Positions 5,120 through 25,252 of a stretch of 51,920 nt of DNA are shown one piece after another (the stretch's first letter is position 1; each line of letters opens with the position of its first letter). A program made the translations under genes and the position numbers. The notes beneath the pieces were generated by a model. That model made no database searches. It was not told where the DNA came from and was given only the letters and a program-made list of their open reading frames with translations. Source of the DNA: a virus. The stretch lies in the UHGV virus genome UHGV-0124386. One strand, written 5' to 3'.

Positions 5120-6043
5120 TTATTGACAGCAAACAATCTCTTTATATGTTTCTTCTACCATGTCGAATACTTCCGGCCTGTAATAAAAAAATTCAGTGCT
5201 ACCATCAAACTTAACAGGGAAGTTTATTTTATAGTCACTGAAAGCATCGTGCATTTTGCTTTCTATTTCCTGCATAATCTCAGTAGGCCCATTCCATGTT
5301 TTAACTACCTGTAAATCAGTCAGCCTTACACCTGCCTTACGAGCACTTTTAAATACTCTGTTCCTCCTTTCGTTCTCTTTTACGCTTACACCAATTTTCA
5401 TTTGTGTAGGCACTTCAAGATCATCAACCATGATGTAAAGTTTTCCGTTGTAGTGTGATAAAAACCCGTATTTAGCGCATTTCGGGCAACCGCGCCCGCT
5501 CTTAATGTCTCTAGGTTTAGCCGACCACTCATGATCACAAACCTTGCAGCGGCATAATACTTTTGTACTGTTATTAACTATTTCAACCAGCACTTCAATA
5601 TCAGGATTAACCTTAGCAATAGCCGATATTTGTTCTTCATGCGATATTTTTTTGCCTTGCGCTCGTTTTAGCACCGCACATTTCTGGCAACCGCTCCCGA
5701 TCTTAAGGCTTTTAGGTGTAGAATACCACTCATGATCACAAACCTTGCAGCGGCATAATACTTTTATTTTGTCGCCGGTAATTTCCCCAAGCACTTCAAT
5801 ATCAGGATTAACCTTAGCAATAGCCGATATTTGTTCTTCATGCGATAACTTCATATTCCCAGCGCATTTCTGGCAACCACGTCCATATTTAATATTGCTA
5901 GGTGTAGCCGACCATTCATGGTTACAAACTTTGCAGCGACATAATACTTTTGTACTGTTATTAACAATTTCCCCTAACACTTCAACATCAGGATTAACTT
6001 TCGCGATAGCTGCAACTTGTTCTTCATGTGTTAACTTGCGCAT
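5120..6043 (-). CDS. protein with three tandem zinc-ribbon repeats and a C-terminal T5orf172 (GIY-YIG-like) domain (307 aa)
   Basis: Three ~60-aa repeats HEEQ.AAIAKVNPD.EVLGEI..KVLCRCKVC.HEW..P..K.G.GC.KC; C-terminal KIGVS...GSTEFF signature resembling T5orf172; strong SD AAGGAG. Confidence 0.6.
   Translation of the reverse strand: MRKLTHEEQVAAIAKVNPDVEVLGEIVNNSTKVLCRCKVCNHEWSATPSNIKYGRGCQKCAGNMKLSHEEQISAIAKVNPDIEVLGEITGDKIKVLCRCKVCDHEWYSTPKSLKIGSGCQKCAVLKRAQGKKISHEEQISAIAKVNPDIEVLVEIVNNSTKVLCRCKVCDHEWSAKPRDIKSGRGCPKCAKYGFLSHYNGKLYIMVDDLEVPTQMKIGVSVKENERRNRVFKSARKAGVRLTDLQVVKTWNGPTEIMQEIESKMHDAFSDYKINFPVKFDGSTEFFYYRPEVFDMVEETYKEIVCCQ
5476..6028. repeat. triplicated ~190-200 bp tandem repeat inside the zinc-ribbon/T5orf172 gene
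   Basis: Antisense ORFs 5544.. and 5745.. both begin MQRHNTF and a third copy follows; protein shows three near-identical modules; coordinates approximate. Confidence 0.7.
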
Positions 6044-17618: not shown

Positions 17619-17803
17619 CAATGAAAAACGAAATTAAAGATCTGCAAATAGATATTCAGCGCGACGAGCATGATTTGGAAACTGTACGACAAATACAGGT
17701 TTTCCACATGCGAGAATTGCTTGCGCTTAAAGAGCTTGAAAGAAAGCTAGTGCAATCAATATCTGATCGCAAAAGACTGGTTGCACGTTACGGGGGTAAA
17801 TAA
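17609..17803 (+). CDS. hypothetical protein (64 aa)
   Basis: ORF track. Confidence 0.35.
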   Translation: MVVTMKNEIKDLQIDIQRDEHDLETVRQIQVFHMRELLALKELERKLVQSISDRKRLVARYGGK

Positions 17804-18525
17804 TGAATCTGGAATCTATTCTTAAATTCCACCTCCCAAAATCACCGCGTTTGTCAGATGAAAGCCGGGGCACGTCCCCAGACTCGCTTAATACTACTGA
17901 TGCACTAACCGCAGCAGGTATGGCGCAATCGCGCGTAGAGCTTGGTTATAGCGCTTTTTTAGGGAAGATGGAACTATCGCAAGCCGAAAAACACAGGGCC
18001 GTAGTTTTGCTTACAGAGCGTTTAAGAGCTATGGCAAAAGATTACGAATACGTCATGGAGCTGGACGAGGACAAACGCAATGATCTTATTATTCTTGTTG
18101 CCGTTTTCGCGTTTCGGGATTACTGCCAGAGTGCCGCGACAGAAAAAACTTGTATGGATTGCGGCGGATATAAATTTACGTTTGACGACTACGGAGAAAA
18201 ACACCTTTGCAAAAAATGCAAGGGGCATGGAAAAGTTCGCAATCATTGTAAACGATGCAAAGGGCGCGGCGAGATACCGGATAAAGCAGCCAGTGAAGCA
18301 GCGGAAATGCCAGTGTTCAAAACGTGCCAGCATTGCGGCGGGCGCGGGTACTCGCGTTTCCCTGTAGATCTTGTCCGGCGTGCGGTTAATCAGCTTGTAT
18401 TTCCGGTAAGCCGATCAACATGGTGGAAAAAATACCGGGTTTTCTATGAAGACGCCATCGCTGAATTGTTCAAAGAAGAGGCGCGGGCTGATAACGAAAT
18501 TAAACGAGTGACGCGAGGTGAATGA
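17803..18525 (+). CDS. Q-type late-gene antiterminator (240 aa)
   Basis: C-terminal zinc-binding cluster CMDCGG...CKKCKGHG...CKRCKGRG...CQHCGGRG as in Q antiterminators; position after nin/rusA genes. Confidence 0.7.
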   Translation: MNLESILKFHLPKSPRLSDESRGTSPDSLNTTDALTAAGMAQSRVELGYSAFLGKMELSQAEKHRAVVLLTERLRAMAKDYEYVMELDEDKRNDLIILVAVFAFRDYCQSAATEKTCMDCGGYKFTFDDYGEKHLCKKCKGHGKVRNHCKRCKGRGEIPDKAASEAAEMPVFKTCQHCGGRGYSRFPVDLVRRAVNQLVFPVSRSTWWKKYRVFYEDAIAELFKEEARADNEIKRVTRGE

Positions 18526-18983
18526 TGGATAAACTGGAAATAAACGATCAGTTTGCTGTTATCTTGTTCGAGGATAAAACAGGCGGTGCATGGTGTAAGA
18601 AAGTCACTGGTGCTGAAGCGCGTTTAATATTGGGAATGGCAAGCGCATTAAACGATGGCGAATTGCCCGCCGTACCTATTGAGCCTGTTCATATTTATGG
18701 GCGGGTAACGACAATGAAGCCTAAATTAAAAGAACATCTTTTTGCAAAACTTGTTAATGACCTGACGTTATCAGCGCGGTTGTGTGGTGATACACAACAA
18801 TTACTGGCGTGGATAGCAAGGGATTTGAAAAAATATATTGAGCCTGGCGGGCCTGGTGACGAAATGACGGTTGATAAGGCCATCGAGCGCCGGACGGCTG
18901 AATGGTCAGTAAGTAATACCGGATTAACCGGATACATCGAAGGCTATAACGACTGTTTACAGGATCATAGCGATGGCAAATAA
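18522..18983 (+). CDS. hypothetical protein (153 aa), start overlaps Q stop
   Basis: ORF track. Confidence 0.45.
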   Translation: MMDKLEINDQFAVILFEDKTGGAWCKKVTGAEARLILGMASALNDGELPAVPIEPVHIYGRVTTMKPKLKEHLFAKLVNDLTLSARLCGDTQQLLAWIARDLKKYIEPGGPGDEMTVDKAIERRTAEWSVSNTGLTGYIEGYNDCLQDHSDGK

Positions 18984-19699: not shown

Positions 19700-20065
19700 A
19701 TGCAAATAATCCTTGATTACCTTTGCCACGCTGCAAATACAATTTTTGGCATGTATCAGCAACCATTCCTCAAAGAATGGGACGAAATGCTTAATGACAT
19801 CATTGATAAAGGGTTAATAGTTGAGGTTGGCGAGCTAACGATAAAATTTAATTACGAAGGCAAAGAATATGATATATGGGTAGGTAACAGATGGTACGCA
19901 TACGGGCATATTTATTCAATTGGCGGCAAATACATTAAACGTAGCCAGGAGTTCAGGCCGCGATTCCGCACAATGCGCCGCCTGCGTGACCTGCATATGA
20001 ATATATTTGAAAATCAGGAAGCGTGTGAACTATTCAAAATCTACGGAGATAAATCATGGAACTAA
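19700..20065 (+). CDS. hypothetical protein (121 aa)
   Basis: ORF track. Confidence 0.45.
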   Translation: MQIILDYLCHAANTIFGMYQQPFLKEWDEMLNDIIDKGLIVEVGELTIKFNYEGKEYDIWVGNRWYAYGHIYSIGGKYIKRSQEFRPRFRTMRRLRDLHMNIFENQEACELFKIYGDKSWN

Positions 20066-20296: not shown

Positions 20297-20530
20297 ATGC
20301 GTATCTATGAACACAAGCGGGATAAAACCCGCTTTTTTGTTCGTGCTGGCGTGGCGTACCAGTATCACGAATGTGGATATATTGAGGTGCTTGCTTACAA
20401 CCTGGATTTCGAACAAGAAAAAGAATGGTTTGACTTTAAGATTTACCGTAAGCGCAAGCCAACGCGCGACGAACGACACGCTATCCGGGACTTTTTAATC
20501 AGCATAGACCACTGGGAGGCAGACGAATGA
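20297..20530 (+). CDS. hypothetical protein (77 aa)
   Basis: ORF track. Confidence 0.4.
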   Translation: MRIYEHKRDKTRFFVRAGVAYQYHECGYIEVLAYNLDFEQEKEWFDFKIYRKRKPTRDERHAIRDFLISIDHWEADE

Positions 20531-20754
20531 AAGTTAAATTCTTGCACGATCACGGATACCAGTCATTGAAACAGGTTGTTGGTAAGGTCGTTAATGTCGT
20601 TCATAGCGATGATATTACTTGCATGATTAATGGTGCTGATCTCATTGCCGCTGGTGCTGATGACCATTACATCAATCCGGCGTGGTCGTATACGTTCAGC
20701 TTGGGCGATTTCGTCGGGGACAAGGGGCGCGGGCTTGAGATTGTAGAGGATTAA
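20527..20754 (+). CDS. hypothetical protein (75 aa)
   Basis: ORF track. Confidence 0.4.
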   Translation: MKVKFLHDHGYQSLKQVVGKVVNVVHSDDITCMINGADLIAAGADDHYINPAWSYTFSLGDFVGDKGRGLEIVED

Positions 20755-20758
20755 CGGT

Positions 20759-20974
20759 ATGGACGTTTACGAAGATCTCTACCTACAGACCAATAGCCGC
20801 ACTTTTTATTTTCTGAAAAGCGGCGTCGTATATCGCAGCGACGACGGGGTGATAATGAAAGAGTGGTTATTTAAGCGTAAAGACCTACTCGAAGATCTGG
20901 TTTTTGCCGGGATATTTCGTAAACGTCCGGCTAACCTGGAAGAAGAAATGTTGATCGACGAGGTGTTAAAATGA
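20759..20974 (+). CDS. hypothetical protein (71 aa)
   Basis: ORF track. Confidence 0.4.
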   Translation: MDVYEDLYLQTNSRTFYFLKSGVVYRSDDGVIMKEWLFKRKDLLEDLVFAGIFRKRPANLEEEMLIDEVLK

Positions 20975-21216
20975 AAGTGAATTATTTCAGGGCAAAAGAC
21001 AAGGCAACAGGAAAGCGGGTGGCTATCCTTGTTAACGAAGCGAATTATATGTTCTTCCTTCAGCCGTGGTGTATTGCGGATCTTAATGACGATTATCGCC
21101 GTCACGCTGCGCGAAGTGCGGTAGGCATGAAAGGCTGGCAACCGCGCGACATGCTTAATTATTGCGAATGGAAGTTGATAGCAAAATACACGGTCGATTA
21201 TAAAGGGGTTTTCTGA
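20971..21216 (+). CDS. hypothetical protein (81 aa)
   Basis: ORF track. Confidence 0.4.
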   Translation: MKVNYFRAKDKATGKRVAILVNEANYMFFLQPWCIADLNDDYRRHAARSAVGMKGWQPRDMLNYCEWKLIAKYTVDYKGVF

Positions 21217-21440
21217 TGTTTGTAAAATGTATAAAGTCTCGTTTCCCTGATCTTTTTGTAGTTGATGAGATTTACGACATAGAAACGCTAATAAGCAGAA
21301 CTAACGATATTCAGTACATTTATGATGAAGACGGCGATCCGTGGTTTTTTTATAACGATCTTGATGGTAGCGGATTCGTTGATGGCGCTGGCGGTAATGG
21401 TGTGCCAGTTGCGCTATTTATAAATCCAAATAGGGAATGA
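21216..21440 (+). CDS. small protein, member of GIY/D.GD.W paralog family (74 aa)
   Basis: ORF track; shares V.C...S....(G/E)IY....L.......QYI.D..GD.W with 21437 and 22545 products. Confidence 0.45.
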   Translation: MFVKCIKSRFPDLFVVDEIYDIETLISRTNDIQYIYDEDGDPWFFYNDLDGSGFVDGAGGNGVPVALFINPNRE

Positions 21441-21652
21441 ATATCATGTATGTCAGATGCACTGAATCAAAAACATCATGCTTTGAGGTTGGTGGAATAT
21501 ATACCGTAGCTCACCTGACTGGTGATGAGCTTAACACTCAATACATTAAAGACGACCACGGCGACGCGTGGCGCTATTGGGATTGCTACGCGCGTGGACA
21601 CGTTACAAGTCAGTTTGGTACGGAACCGATCGCGCGTTTTGTTAAGTGGTAA
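21437..21652 (+). CDS. small protein, member of GIY/D.GD.W paralog family (71 aa)
   Basis: ORF track; paralog of 21216 product. Confidence 0.45.
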   Translation: MNIMYVRCTESKTSCFEVGGIYTVAHLTGDELNTQYIKDDHGDAWRYWDCYARGHVTSQFGTEPIARFVKW

Positions 21653-21704
21653 TGTCGTTTGCATCAATAAATGTGATCTACACAGCAAGGTTTACGAAAT
21701 GGCA

Positions 21705-21733
21705 TTGTTTCGGCAGTGCCATTTTGTTATATA
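21705..21733 (+). promoter_or_regulatory. candidate internal promoter TTGTTT-17-TATATA overlapped by palindrome AAATGGCA-N12-TGCCATTT (21697-21724)
   Basis: Read directly from sequence in the 21653-21766 intergenic gap; also contains a CATTTTGT motif copy. Confidence 0.3.
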
Positions 21734-21766
21734 TAAGCCACAGAAAGACGGATGGGAGGCAAGAAG

Positions 21767-21907
21767 ATGAACGCAAACGCAAAATATCCTGCCTGGGTGT
21801 TTGAGTTATATGCCAGATACTTCGAACTACTGGCACCAGGCGAAGAAGCATTAAGCATTGACGAATACGCGGAGTGTTTGGGGTTCAAAGGAGGCAAAGA
21901 AGGATAA
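21767..21907 (+). CDS. small hypothetical protein (46 aa)
   Basis: Strong SD GGGAGG before ATG; hand-translated MNANAKYPAWVFELYARYFELLAPGEEALSIDEYAECLGFKGGKEG. Confidence 0.35.
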   Translation: MNANAKYPAWVFELYARYFELLAPGEEALSIDEYAECLGFKGGKEG

Positions 21908-21950
21908 AGCACGGGGTCGGATGGCTCCATCAAACCAGAAGGGTTGAATC

Positions 21951-22250
21951 ATGAAAAGCGATAAATTCATAGCGTGCTGTTTTGTTGAAGTGCCTAAAGG
22001 TGATGCCTTCTGCGATTATGAATTTAAAGACAGTTGGGGAAAATCTCATGTTGTAGTTGGCAAGCGCGGAGACTGGTTATACATAACAGACGACGACATG
22101 ATTTTTACTGCAAACCAGTTATTCAAAATTAAGTCAGAAAATAGTGAAACGCCACTTTGCAGCATGTTTAACATGCATTATCACTCACTATTATTGTTAA
22201 AACAAGATGTTATAAATAAAGCGCGTAGCTTACCCGGTGCTGAATTTTAA
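21951..22250 (+). CDS. hypothetical protein (99 aa)
   Basis: ORF track; SD AGAAGGG. Confidence 0.45.
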   Translation: MKSDKFIACCFVEVPKGDAFCDYEFKDSWGKSHVVVGKRGDWLYITDDDMIFTANQLFKIKSENSETPLCSMFNMHYHSLLLLKQDVINKARSLPGAEF

Positions 22251-22273
22251 TTTATTACTAAGGAGAATAAGCA

Positions 22274-22615
22274 ATGTACAAATTTATCAGCGTTAAAGTT
22301 TTCCGTGGTACTTTACCGAACGAAGAAAGATTGGGACAGTACGCCGGGCAACCTGGCGCATGTTTCCGCGTAGCTACTGATAACGACGCTCACATCAAGT
22401 GCTTCCATGTATCTGAACCGCCTTTCGATGTGAAACACCTTGAAGATGAAAATCACGTTAAACACTTCGTTTTTGCCTCGCTGATGTTTGATTCTAGCCA
22501 TAAAACATCTAAAAACGAAGTGGATTTGATCGGCGCTGAACTGGTTGCGGAATACAAAATCACTGAAGGAGAAAACGGAGTGGCGGAAATTGAGCGCATC
22601 AAACAAGCTGTATAA
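22274..22615 (+). CDS. hypothetical protein (113 aa)
   Basis: ORF track; SD AAGGAGAA. Confidence 0.45.
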   Translation: MYKFISVKVFRGTLPNEERLGQYAGQPGACFRVATDNDAHIKCFHVSEPPFDVKHLEDENHVKHFVFASLMFDSSHKTSKNEVDLIGAELVAEYKITEGENGVAEIERIKQAV

Positions 22616-22841
22616 AGTCAGGTGTAAAGGTGAATATCCTGGCTTTACGGTTGGTTGCGAATACCTGGGCCATATTGGGTACGGCCCTTTCGGTGAACTT
22701 GGAATGAATACGATGGACGACGACGGCGACAGCAGGACGCTCGATCTTGATTCTGATGATTTCGAATACGTACCGCCAGTAACTTACCGCGTCGTTGATG
22801 ATTTCCTGGCTGAACATGAAGACGATGAAGAGGATGATTAA
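22545..22841 (+). CDS. small acidic protein, paralog-family member (start uncertain; track gives 98 aa)
   Basis: ORF track; contains VRCKGEYPGFTVGCEY...DDDGD pattern and acidic C-terminus. Confidence 0.35.
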   Translation: MRNTKSLKEKTEWRKLSASNKLYKVRCKGEYPGFTVGCEYLGHIGYGPFGELGMNTMDDDGDSRTLDLDSDDFEYVPPVTYRVVDDFLAEHEDDEEDD

Positions 22842-22843
22842 CT

Positions 22844-22984
22844 ATGAATGACGAATACGTTAAAAATTTTATTGTTATGTTTCTTAGTGAGAACTGGCGC
22901 ATGTTTGAACATTATTGTTTTGAGCGCGGGGAAAATGCTGAAGAAATCTATCAATATTTAGGCGGGGAGAAAGAGGATGATTGA
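22844..22984 (+). CDS. small hypothetical protein (46 aa)
   Basis: Hand-translated MNDEYVKNFIVMFLSENWRMFEHYCFERGENAEEIYQYLGGEKEDD; fills gap between neighbours. Confidence 0.3.
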   Translation: MNDEYVKNFIVMFLSENWRMFEHYCFERGENAEEIYQYLGGEKEDD

Positions 22985-23177
22985 ATGTCTTATCTTTGCT
23001 GTATTTCTCCTTTATATCGCTGGCGCTATCCTGATGTCTTGTTTCATCAAATGTAACGATCTCGATCGTGGTGGCCTTGAGATTCCTTTCTGGCCTGTAG
23101 CGGTGTTTATCGCTTTCTTCGATGCAACGCTAGTGCAGATTAAGCGAGCCATTAAGGAGCGTAAAAATGGGAAATAG
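22977..23177 (+). CDS. small membrane protein (66 aa)
   Basis: ORF track; hydrophobic segments. Confidence 0.4.
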   Translation: MIECLIFAVFLLYIAGAILMSCFIKCNDLDRGGLEIPFWPVAVFIAFFDATLVQIKRAIKERKNGK

Positions 23178-23391
23178 CGACCATCAATATGACGGCGTTT
23201 ATCAGTCATTGGTGTCACGCGCTTATTATCGCCTTGAAGGTGAACACGTAATGATGCGATCACGCCAGTTTGAACCGTGGCATGAAACGGTTTTACCTGT
23301 GACAGCGAAAGAAGTTATCACGATGTTTAATCACGGACATTGGAGCAAGATTGGCGATATTAAGTTCAGGATGTTTAAAGAGGGCGGTTAA
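23167..23391 (+). CDS. small protein, paralog-family member (74 aa)
   Basis: ORF track; YDGVYQSLVSRAYYRLEGEH...EPWHE pattern shared with 23392 and 23571 products. Confidence 0.45.
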   Translation: MGNSDHQYDGVYQSLVSRAYYRLEGEHVMMRSRQFEPWHETVLPVTAKEVITMFNHGHWSKIGDIKFRMFKEGG

Positions 23392-23574
23392 ATGATTGAA
23401 GATGGTATATACGCCGTGAACCTCATTGATGAAATGTTTTACCGCGTGGAGGGTAATGATATTCGTATCAGTATCGATGGTGGCGAGTGGAAAGAGCCAT
23501 TCATGGATATGACGCGGGAAATAATTGAAATCATGCTTTATAACGGCGACGTGGTGAAGGTTAGCGACCTGTGA
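23392..23574 (+). CDS. small protein, paralog-family member (60 aa)
   Basis: ORF track; EDGIYAVNLIDEMFYRVEGND...GGEWKE. Confidence 0.45.
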   Translation: MIEDGIYAVNLIDEMFYRVEGNDIRISIDGGEWKEPFMDMTREIIEIMLYNGDVVKVSDL

Positions 23575-23747
23575 ACGAGATCGAAGACGGCATCTATTTG
23601 CATAAGGTATTTAACATCGTCTATTTACTTAAAGGTAATAAGGTGATGATAAGACCTGATGACGATCCACATTGGGAATCAAGCGGCATGGATCGCGAAC
23701 ACATGCAAACATTGCTTGATAATGGCCTGATATACAGAAAGCAGTAA
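23571..23747 (+). CDS. small protein, paralog-family member (58 aa, GTG start)
   Basis: Hand-translated VNEIEDGIYLHKVFNIVYLLKGNKVMIRPDDDPHWESSGMDREHMQTLLDNGLIYRKQ; GTG overlaps upstream stop. Confidence 0.35.
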   Translation: MNEIEDGIYLHKVFNIVYLLKGNKVMIRPDDDPHWESSGMDREHMQTLLDNGLIYRKQ

Positions 23748-23769
23748 AGCCGTATTTGTTGGGGGTAAT

Positions 23770-23997
23770 ATGGAAGAAAGGGTTTTGCTGTCATCAATAT
23801 GGCATCGGTTCGGAAGTGAAAAAGGTTACTCACCTGCTTGCTGGCTGGATAGTAAAAGCGGAAAGGAGTATCAAAACGAGTGCGAATTTAGAAGGGAGTG
23901 GCGAGGCGGTAAGGAAGTGCAAGGATATTTTGCACCAAAACACGTTGCCGTCAAATACAAAGAATGGCTTGTTCGTTTGCTTGGACCTTATCGTTAA
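23770..23997 (+). CDS. hypothetical protein (75 aa)
   Basis: ORF track. Confidence 0.4.
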   Translation: MEERVLLSSIWHRFGSEKGYSPACWLDSKSGKEYQNECEFRREWRGGKEVQGYFAPKHVAVKYKEWLVRLLGPYR

Positions 23998-24005
23998 CGC
24001 CGTAT

Positions 24006-24034
24006 TTGTAGAGCGCAAACAAACAGATTAAAAT
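24006..24034 (+). promoter_or_regulatory. candidate late promoter (pR'-like) TTGTAG-17-TAAAAT
   Basis: Hexamers with 17-bp spacing about 30 bp upstream of a strong terminator and the lysis cassette; weak -35. Confidence 0.3.
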
Positions 24035-24062
24035 ATTTCCTAACAATGCGAAATTGTAATTA

Positions 24063-24088
24063 CCCGGCCCCGCGCCGGGTTTTTGCTT
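24063..24088 (+). terminator. rho-independent terminator (tR'-like) immediately upstream of holin
   Basis: CCCGGC-N5-GCCGGG stem followed by TTTTTGCTTTG. Confidence 0.65.
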
Positions 24089-24104
24089 TGTTGGAGGAAA
24101 ATCT

Positions 24105-24305
24105 ATGTTCGACAGAATACGGGAGGCGTGTGCGTATGTGACTGGGGCCGTAACTGCTTTTTTCGGCGCGATAACCATTAATGACATCGCTGTTTTCGTT
24201 GGTATCTTATCAACCGTAGGCACATTTGCCGTTAATTATTACTTCAAATCACAGGAGAACAAGCGGGCGCAAGAGGAACACGACGCGCGAATGGGGAATA
24301 AGTAA
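24105..24305 (+). CDS. holin, probably pinholin class (66 aa)
   Basis: Two hydrophobic segments then charged C-terminus (YYFKSQENKRAQEEHDARMGNK); immediately precedes SAR endolysin as in phage 21. Confidence 0.6.
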   Translation: MFDRIREACAYVTGAVTAFFGAITINDIAVFVGILSTVGTFAVNYYFKSQENKRAQEEHDARMGNK

Positions 24306-24794
24306 ATGATTAGCCAATCGCTGAAAAACAAGATTGTTGCGGCGGCTGGTGGGGCGATCGCTATTGCGGCGGTGATGATAAAAGATCTTGAAGGCGTTGA
24401 GTATAAGCCATACAGAGATGTCATCGGTGTTTACACGATATGTTATGGACACGTCGGAAAAGACATTATGCTTGGTAAGACTTACACGCAATCAGAATGC
24501 GATGCTTTATTAAATAAAGATCTACACAAGACCGCAAAAGCGATTGACCCATATATCAAAGTCGAAATATCAGATTTTACCCGCGCAGCACTTTATTCAT
24601 TCGCCTATAACGTAGGCGCTACCAACTTCAAAACATCAACCTTACTAAAACTACTCAATGACGGCAAGAAATCAGAAGCGTGCGCACAGCTTAAACGCTG
24701 GGTATACGCTGGCGGTAAGAAGTGGCAAGGCCTGGTAAACCGCCGCGAGGTTGAATATGCCGTTTGCGAATGGGGGGAAACGTGGACAAGGTGA
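24306..24794 (+). CDS. SAR endolysin (signal-anchor-release lysozyme, T4-lysozyme fold, 162 aa)
   Basis: N-terminal Gly/Ala-rich SAR helix ([17 protein letters not shown]) followed by [10 protein letters not shown]...GVYTICYGH; closely matches recalled phage 21 R21. Confidence 0.85.
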
Positions 24795-25252
24795 AGGCGT
24801 TAATTATCGCCGCTGTTGTTTGCATTATTGCCGGACTGACCGCCGTAACATGTTATTACCAGGGTGAGGCGGCAAGGTTACAGGAAGAAGTCACGGTAAC
24901 GAAAGGCGCACTGAAAACGGCAAGTAACACTATTCAGCAGATGAAGGAGCGAAACGCCGAACTGTCAAAACTTGATAAGAGGTATCACGATGAGATTAAA
25001 GCTATCAGATCTGACATTGCCGATCTGCGCACTGGCATTGATAACGGTACTATCCGGTTGCGCGTCAACGCAATACCCGTGCGAGTGTCCGACCCCGCCG
25101 CGACCGCCAGCCGCATTGATGGAGCCACCTGCGAGCTTGATGCCACTGCTAGACAATCTTATCTATCCCTCAGAGAACAACTAAAAGAGAAAGACGCACA
25201 GATCACTGGCCTACAGGACTACATCAAAACTCAGTGTTTACGCAAAGAATAG
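24764..25252 (+). CDS. Rz-like inner-membrane spanin (start uncertain, 24764 ATG or 24779 GTG)
   Basis: N-terminal TM segment, coiled-coil body, position after endolysin with embedded +1 frame lipoprotein gene. Confidence 0.65.
24990..25184 (+). CDS. Rz1-like outer-membrane lipoprotein spanin embedded in Rz (64 aa)
   Basis: Lipobox LSGC after hydrophobic signal, proline-rich mature part ([18 protein letters not shown]); entirely within Rz in another frame. Confidence 0.6.
   Translation: MRLKLSDLTLPICALALITVLSGCASTQYPCECPTPPRPPAALMEPPASLMPLLDNLIYPSENN

Follow-up and report, generated by a model that had tools for sequence, protein, structure and literature searches.

In phage lambda, the late promoter directly follows the antiterminator gene Q, and lambdoid phages carry moron- or nin-type blocks beside Q and the lysis genes, in which variable, small and non-essential genes are mosaic among relatives. 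To our knowledge, Gp54 of Escherichia phage Bas11 (JohannLBurckhardt) is the sole small non-structural protein shown to be directly sensed by the defence protein CapRelSJ46. Gp54 binds the sensor domain of CapRelSJ46 directly (PMC11578894). The mEpimmI phages are temperate, Nus-dependent, non-lambdoid coliphages that originate from human faeces, and their variable genes lie mostly in the regulation cluster, outside the 50 core genes (PMC11893012). Here we analyse the accessory block between the Q-type antiterminator gene and the lysis cassette in the UHGV virus genome UHGV-0124386 (51,920 nt; the window), where the block of interest lies on the + strand and contains an array of very small genes. 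The window belongs to a temperate Escherichia coli phage of the mEp021 (mEpimmI) group. The 3.2-kb region that holds the genes under study is 82.6–87% identical to mEp044, mEp010, mEp554, mEp013, mEp021, mEp515 and MagusPhagus, and its alignment to these phages is a mosaic.

The small genes of this region constitute two unrelated small-protein families, A and B, each organized as a tandem array, together with one marginal relative, gene D. The initial annotation had assigned them to a single family of at least six paralogues with one shared architecture. The six open reading frames (ORFs; 58–98 codons) are present on the + strand where it placed them, and the peptides quoted from them were recovered. 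Small paralogues have multiplied in the block as it claimed, and two groups are clearly paralogous (shuffle z 6.5–13.1). The genes are the following:

21216–21440, + strand: family A paralogue 1, 74 aa, assigned by blastp, shuffle z, phrog_31142 and the family hidden Markov model (HMM; E 6e-26)
21437–21652, + strand: family A paralogue 2, 71 aa, a predicted six-stranded β-barrel with a long β1–β2 loop
22590–22841, + strand: gene D, 83 aa from a TTG codon at 22590 (the longest ORF runs from 22545), assigned by phrog_25234 and the ratio of nonsynonymous to synonymous substitution rates (dN/dS)
23167–23391, + strand: family B paralogue 1, 74 aa with a C-terminal extension, assigned by blastp, shuffle z and phrog_15318
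23392–23574, + strand: family B paralogue 2, 60 aa, with three predicted strands, a helix and a fourth strand
23571–23747, + strand: family B paralogue 3, 58 aa, with a GTG start that overlaps the preceding stop codon; phrog_15318 E 3.8e-31

All-against-all blastp of 22 block proteins, complemented by Smith-Waterman z-scores from 1,000 shuffles, gave only two strong groups. The family A paralogues share 33% identity over 70 aa (E 6e-9; shuffle z 13.1). Within family B, the blastp E-values are 1e-5 for 23167 and 23392, 2e-3 for 23167 and 23571, and 1e-4 for the remaining pair, with shuffle z ranging from 6.5 (23167 against 23571) to 11.2 (23167 against 23392). By contrast, every cross pair among family A, family B and the 22545 product lies at chance level (z −1.0 to +0.2), and the HMMs of A and B do not find each other (cross-hit E above 2). 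Profile alignment of A with B by hhalign returned P 0.14 with 10–11 sequences per family and P 0.064 with larger alignments, in the very register that the initial annotation had proposed and with a score at chance level. The paralogy is upheld by alignment and HMM building within A and within B, and fails across the two. The PHROGs database splits the six genes into three groups, namely phrog_31142 (A, E 4e-9 to 2e-41), phrog_15318 (B, E 2e-5 to 6e-33) and phrog_25234 (D, E 7e-45), with matches spanning most of the profile for all three; these entries are all labelled 'unknown function', and membership carries no mechanism and mainly confirms the three families.

When the ORFs of seven phages were pooled and clustered by single linkage, A, B and the 121-aa gene at 19700 seemed to fall into one cluster of 36 members. 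This cluster was rejected because the A–B link ran through the chimeric protein mEp013_60 and overlapping ORFs in alternative frames; once mEp013_60 is removed, no direct edge between A and B is left. Searches with the family alignments covered 5.8 billion proteins and yielded 78 clusters for A and 204 for B. Matches with a named source came from E. coli, one Escherichia sp. genome or uncultured-phage records only, none of them with a Pfam domain, and in the phage collection A and B are each carried by mEpimmI phages only. A sequence search of the PDB and a search of Rfam gave nothing useful for the block.

Structural models were obtained with AlphaFold2 without templates from 35-sequence alignments. 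The family A model (21437 product; predicted local distance difference test score, pLDDT, 88.7) consists of six strands and no helix. The family B model (23392 product; pLDDT 95.6, predicted template modelling score 0.81) consists of three strands, a helix at residues 42–50 and a fourth strand. The predicted folds of A and B are different, and the single architecture attributed to the genes does not survive at the level of modelled secondary structure. The proposed signature, in which a (D/G)G(I/V)Y motif is followed by an acidic turn and a Trp, is not significant, and its elements are placed differently in the two models. In family A, GGIY lies in strand 2 and DDHGD forms the turn of the β3–β4 hairpin; in family B, DGIY lies in strand 1 and is followed by two further strands, with GGEW in the loop that precedes the helix. 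The shared pattern would thus occupy different structural positions.

A search with the family A profile against 1.84 billion representative proteins found about 25 true small relatives and, at the top, large repeat proteins with E down to 1.5e-32, a value summed over 23 repeats. The repeat proteins are NHL and Reg_prop propellers that match once per blade and only in the hairpin motif, and were rejected as homologues of A. Blades of these β-propellers (NHL PF01436, Reg_prop PF07494) carry a hairpin of the form D-x-x-G-(D/N)-x-W-(F/Y) that scores on positions 30–68 of the A profile; the propellers are multi-blade toroids of hundreds of residues, in contrast to the single barrel of roughly 70 aa predicted for family A. 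We treated these matches as probable convergence on a stable hairpin at the level of the motif rather than as homology. Because propeller blades carry D-x-x-G-N-x-W-F, the acidic turn with its Trp is a common β-hairpin and a poor marker of ancestry.

Gene D most likely starts at TTG 22590 rather than at 22545. A GGAG lies 9 nt upstream of this TTG, and the resulting 83 aa correspond to the full length of the phrog_25234 profile, of which the 22629–22838 product covers positions 14–83 of 83. Annotations of D are inconsistent across the RefSeq loci compared (L008, L009, L010, L011 and L013), with lengths of 43–46 aa (45 aa from an internal ATG in some records) versus 81–83 aa. The 28 codons upstream of that ATG have a dN/dS of 0.08–0.20, which indicates that the long form is translated; it overlaps the end of gene 22274–22615 by 26 nt and has a strongly acidic C-terminal tail. 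The N-terminal half of D aligns to A by hhalign with P 0.008 over 39 columns, matching the conserved Cys, F-x-x-G-x-x-Y and D-x-x-G, and neither the Ser nor the Trp. The D HMM finds family A members at E 0.012–0.023 among 174 ORFs, and the pairwise shuffle z between D and A is about 0.

The families are connected by natural chimeras between neighbouring genes. The protein mEp013_60 joins the N-terminus of an A protein (...ARAGGG) to the C-terminus of a B protein (EWVAPIIKTTRE...). Family A is fused to a 23571-type B gene at ...DNDDD|PHWE in P0055, to a 23392-type B gene in P0012 and to another family A type in P0068; fusions to D occur at ...D-x-x-G-D|SRTLDL in P0054 and P0058, and at ...NDLD|TDDFEY in P0043. 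Further in-frame chimeras are P0029, P0074 and the one at 5423–5719 of locus L006, and the types include A joined to the C-terminus of a 22274-type gene. The junctions are microhomologies of 2–5 residues, several of them exactly at the acidic D-x-x-G-D turn, where the codons of 21437 and 22590 are identical at 14 of 15 nt, GACGAC(C/G)ACGGCGAC. Deletion between neighbours at short common motifs, including the GAY-rich acidic turn, produces such in-frame chimeras. Microhomology-mediated deletion accounts for the junctions, and therefore homology over the whole genes is not required. In this block, new small ORFs seem to arise frequently by deletion between adjacent genes.

The region represents the distal end of a hypervariable accessory block of the mEp021-group (mEpimmI) coliphages. 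The block comprises about 22 small + strand genes between Q and lysis, tightly packed and mostly with overlapping stop and start codons, and matches 35 of 5,426 complete E. coli genomes, as a mosaic in every case. Full-length copies were counted in 15 genomes, comprising the window, six related phages and eight E. coli prophages. Their number differs among these genomes, from 0 to 4 for A, 1 to 3 for B and 0 to 1 for D (2, 3 and 1 in the window), in agreement with the proposal of a variable accessory region. The 23571 gene is the most widely kept member of B and occurs in 13 of the 15 genomes, including mEp021. Compared with orthologues, dN/dS is 0.15–0.43 for A and B, 0.14–0.18 for D and 0.04–0.17 for neighbouring genes, which indicates purifying selection with faster protein divergence. 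No long direct DNA repeats link the paralogues; the duplications are therefore old, and recent duplication was rejected. Each of A and B has become a tandem array by old duplication followed by divergence.

The proposed transcriptional context of the genes is defined by these features:

17803–18525, + strand: Q-type late antiterminator gene, 240 aa, at the upstream edge of the accessory block
24007–24090, + strand: conserved non-coding block (about 100 nt) that immediately precedes the holin gene, with TTGTAG-17 nt-TAAAAT, AACAAT and a hairpin
24105–24305, + strand: holin gene, the first of the lysis cassette; orthologue annotated holin
24306–24794, + strand: lysozyme gene; orthologue annotated endolysin
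24764–25252, + strand: Rz gene; orthologue annotated Rz-like spanin

With Q upstream and the holin, lysozyme and Rz genes downstream, the 'Q-to-lysis' placement given to the genes is correct. Q matches Pfam PF03589 (E 1.3e-29; 102.5 bits against a cut-off of 26.7) and phrog_127 (E 1.5e-78), and its orthologue in the mEp021 record is annotated as putative late gene regulator Q. The block before the holin gene is near-invariant in seven phages, while the flanking coding DNA is just 80–90% identical. It contains a putative terminator hairpin at 24062–24090 (7-bp stem with six GC pairs, followed by a T run, 15 nt before the holin start) that is invariant across the seven phages according to a terminator scan and the alignment, and the mEp021 record has TERM_5 (score 100) annotated at the homologous site. 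Two expected parts of a Q-type module are found, namely a Q-family protein and a predicted intrinsic terminator before the first late gene.

We propose that 24007–24090 comprises a late promoter and a terminator, a candidate site of Q action some 5.5 kb away from the Q gene. Q and the gene that follows it overlap, so that a promoter and terminator could not fit immediately behind Q. The layout before the holin gene resembles the late promoter and terminator of lambda, with a terminator ahead of the lysis genes like tR'. The locus differs from lambdoid blocks in that mEpimmI phages are non-lambdoid and the promoter–terminator block lies well downstream of Q, past the small genes. Since the small genes stand upstream of this conserved block, they would be the tail of the early-right operon, transcribed before the late genes, rather than passengers of the late operon. 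The early-right transcript would be read through by the N-like antiterminator Gp17. Lying upstream of the presumed late promoter, the small genes are probably late-early genes.

The predicted family A model resembles Gp54 of Bas11 (PDB 9AXB; Pfam PF25180, 'Phage antiviral trigger protein Gp54'; phrog_7421). The two have the same number of strands (six) and, as predicted for A, a barrel, and the β1–β2 loop of the A model is 9 residues long; the six-stranded β-barrel with a long β1–β2 loop is thus reproduced by the family A model. By analogy with Gp54, the A and B proteins would be small and soluble and would bind host or defence proteins during lytic growth; conflict with host factors would then underlie their fast divergence and their turnover in copy number. 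The initial annotation had ascribed a host-takeover or anti-defence role to the genes. Such a role is a conjecture by analogy, albeit a reasonable one for small, dispensable and fast-turning phage proteins, and the Gp54-like fold predicted for A would strengthen it slightly.

The explanation that we consider best overall, and hold with moderate confidence, combines two unrelated array families, expression at the tail of the early operon and binding of host or defence proteins. A number of results weigh against it. A sequence link between A and Gp54 was rejected: none of 35 family A sequences matches PF25180 (gathering score 27 bits), even at E up to 10, where Gp54 homologues score 112–124 bits; hhalign of family A against the Gp54 alignment gave P 0.3; and the two proteins belong to different PHROGs (phrog_31142 and phrog_7421). 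What remains is a resemblance in fold, seen in a predicted model, which does not amount to family membership. Moreover, no function of Gp54 itself has been described; it has been characterised as triggering a defence system rather than inhibiting one, and binding and activation of CapRelSJ46 are not conserved even among close Gp54 homologues (PMC11578894). Block proteins found no match in Pfam or NCBIfam, and ten of them no hit in PADLOC-DB at E up to 1, a null that says little on an anti-defence role given that this database holds defence-system proteins. The values of dN/dS below 1 denote constraint, not positive selection. The consensus promoter scan did not call TTGTAG-17-TAAAAT, and its assignment is our reading; the identity of the experimentally shown 't5' of the mEpimmI study with TERM_5 was not confirmed, as the text of that study gives no coordinates. 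Finally, D is possibly a distant relative of A, to judge from the profile alignment, a relationship that is marginal and not established.

Part of the same evidence can be read differently. The small genes may be real and paralogous and yet serve the cycle of the phage itself, in replication, recombination, lysis timing or virion assembly, with neutral variation in copy number. They share an operon with nin-type recombination genes and Q, show the constraint just described and no sign of positive selection, match no defence or counter-defence family, and have a neighbour (20759) whose mEp021 orthologue is annotated as a virion structural protein. We regard this alternative as unlikely, although it deserves attention. 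Family A is wholly missing from mEp021 and from the prophages of strains M15 and E21845/O/A, and B is down to one copy in viable phages, which speaks against these genes being central to the phage cycle. Likewise, variable genes of the group belong to the regulation cluster and not to the core (PMC11893012), and Gp54, the closest relative by structure, is dispensable under laboratory conditions (PMC11578894). A more specific proposal goes beyond the explanation that we favour: A proteins would be true, highly diverged relatives of Gp54, the arrays would form an evolving collection of small barrels directed at host immune sensors, for example CapRel-type toxin–antitoxins, inhibiting or decoying one system or triggering another, and microhomology-mediated recombination at the acidic turn would swap protein halves of neighbouring genes, with A–B and A–D hybrids among the new binding specificities. 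We consider it doubtful.

A common origin of all six or more genes from one ancestral gene, with one fold, the motif as its signature and the similarity erased by divergence, would agree with the adjacency and similar size of the genes, with the hhalign register that sets GIY on GIY and the acidic turn and Trp likewise, though without significance, with chimeras in which A is fused to B or to D at or beside the motif, and with the marginal likeness of D to A (P 0.008). This reading is largely refuted by the chance-level cross pairs and the different predicted folds, and appears very improbable. It is hardly credible that some or all of the six are ORFs that arose by chance, or remnants in decay, within a junk-like stretch separating Q from lysis. 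The genes are indeed very short, PGAP and PHANOTATE differ on some starts (gene D), and many truncated or frameshifted variants exist in databases. Against this, dN/dS is 0.08–0.43 with substantial synonymous divergence, reading frames are kept across the 15 genomes, the genes have ribosome-binding sites and overlapping stop and start codons, AlphaFold2 gave confident models (pLDDT 88.7 and 95.6), and the families have hundreds of database clusters. Two unrelated families of genuine genes thus remain the preferred description of the arrays.

Three further features of the block touch on the arrays:

19700–20065, + strand: 121-aa gene outside the span of the initial annotation; residues 16–46 resemble the C-terminal half of B (helix and last strand)
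21694–21727, + strand: hairpin after the A array, 15-bp stem, −19.9 kcal/mol, z −5.2
23750–23999, + strand: 250-bp insertion with ORF 23770–23997 (75 aa, phrog_23715), a clean alignment gap in six relatives

The 19700 product matches a family B protein of mEp554 (blastp E 8e-5, shuffle z 8.8); its shuffle z against the window's own 23392 is just 2.9 and the family B HMM gives E 0.03. The resemblance may be another case of module exchange. The hairpin at 21694–21727 stands between the A array on one side and, on the other, a small conserved ORF (about 21767–21907) with the rest of the block. It is kept in five relatives, with ARNold terminators annotated at its position in mEp010, mEp044 and mEp554, and it resembles an intrinsic terminator. 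Another conserved GC hairpin, at about 21913–21928, lacks a T run. The two hairpins may serve in termination or in RNA processing. The insertion at 23750–23999 is missing from all six related phages aligned, is bordered by direct repeats with the core GCCGTATTTGT, and lies immediately upstream of the proposed late promoter. Its ORF has weak similarity to KilA-N (E 0.0035), and E. coli 2017C-4173W12 has a gene of the same size at this position.

The genes 20297–20530 and 20759–20974 may represent a third, weak paralogue pair: over 77 aa their products are 26% identical, with a blastp E of 0.034, a shuffle z of 3.7 and an hhalign P of 0.02, and they have in common the motifs M-x-(I/V)-Y-E, T-x-(F/Y)-F-x-x-x-G-V-x-Y and (I/F)-(Y/F)-R-K-R. 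The orthologue of 20759–20974, mEp021_41 (L001 8233–8481), carries the virion structural label far from the structural genes. The ORF at 18522–18983 (153 aa) matches phrog_35000 at residues 2–62 and phrog_29262 at 65–153, end to end; its counterpart consists of two separate genes in mEp010, mEp554 and others, and it looks like a gene fusion in the window phage and some prophages. A 66-aa protein with two hydrophobic stretches (22977–23177) is encoded directly upstream of the B array and overlaps the first B gene; the database protein P0176 is a read-through fusion of a protein of this type with a family B member.

None of these findings would overturn current views. They remove a false lead, the single six-member family, and leave three leads in its place, namely the Gp54-like fold, the chimeras and the gene order. 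The chimeras show a route by which new small proteins arise in such blocks, and the gene order suggests that, in mEpimmI phages, a sizeable accessory cargo separates Q from the promoter that it targets. Most new counter-defence factors and immune triggers are being discovered among small phage proteins whose function is unknown. Family A offers a structural lead in this respect: the family, which is carried by prophages and is common among E. coli phages of the gut, is predicted to share the rare barrel of Gp54. It raises the question of whether Gp54-like barrels constitute a wider class of host-interaction modules, and whether CapRel-type sensors may detect temperate phages through such barrels.

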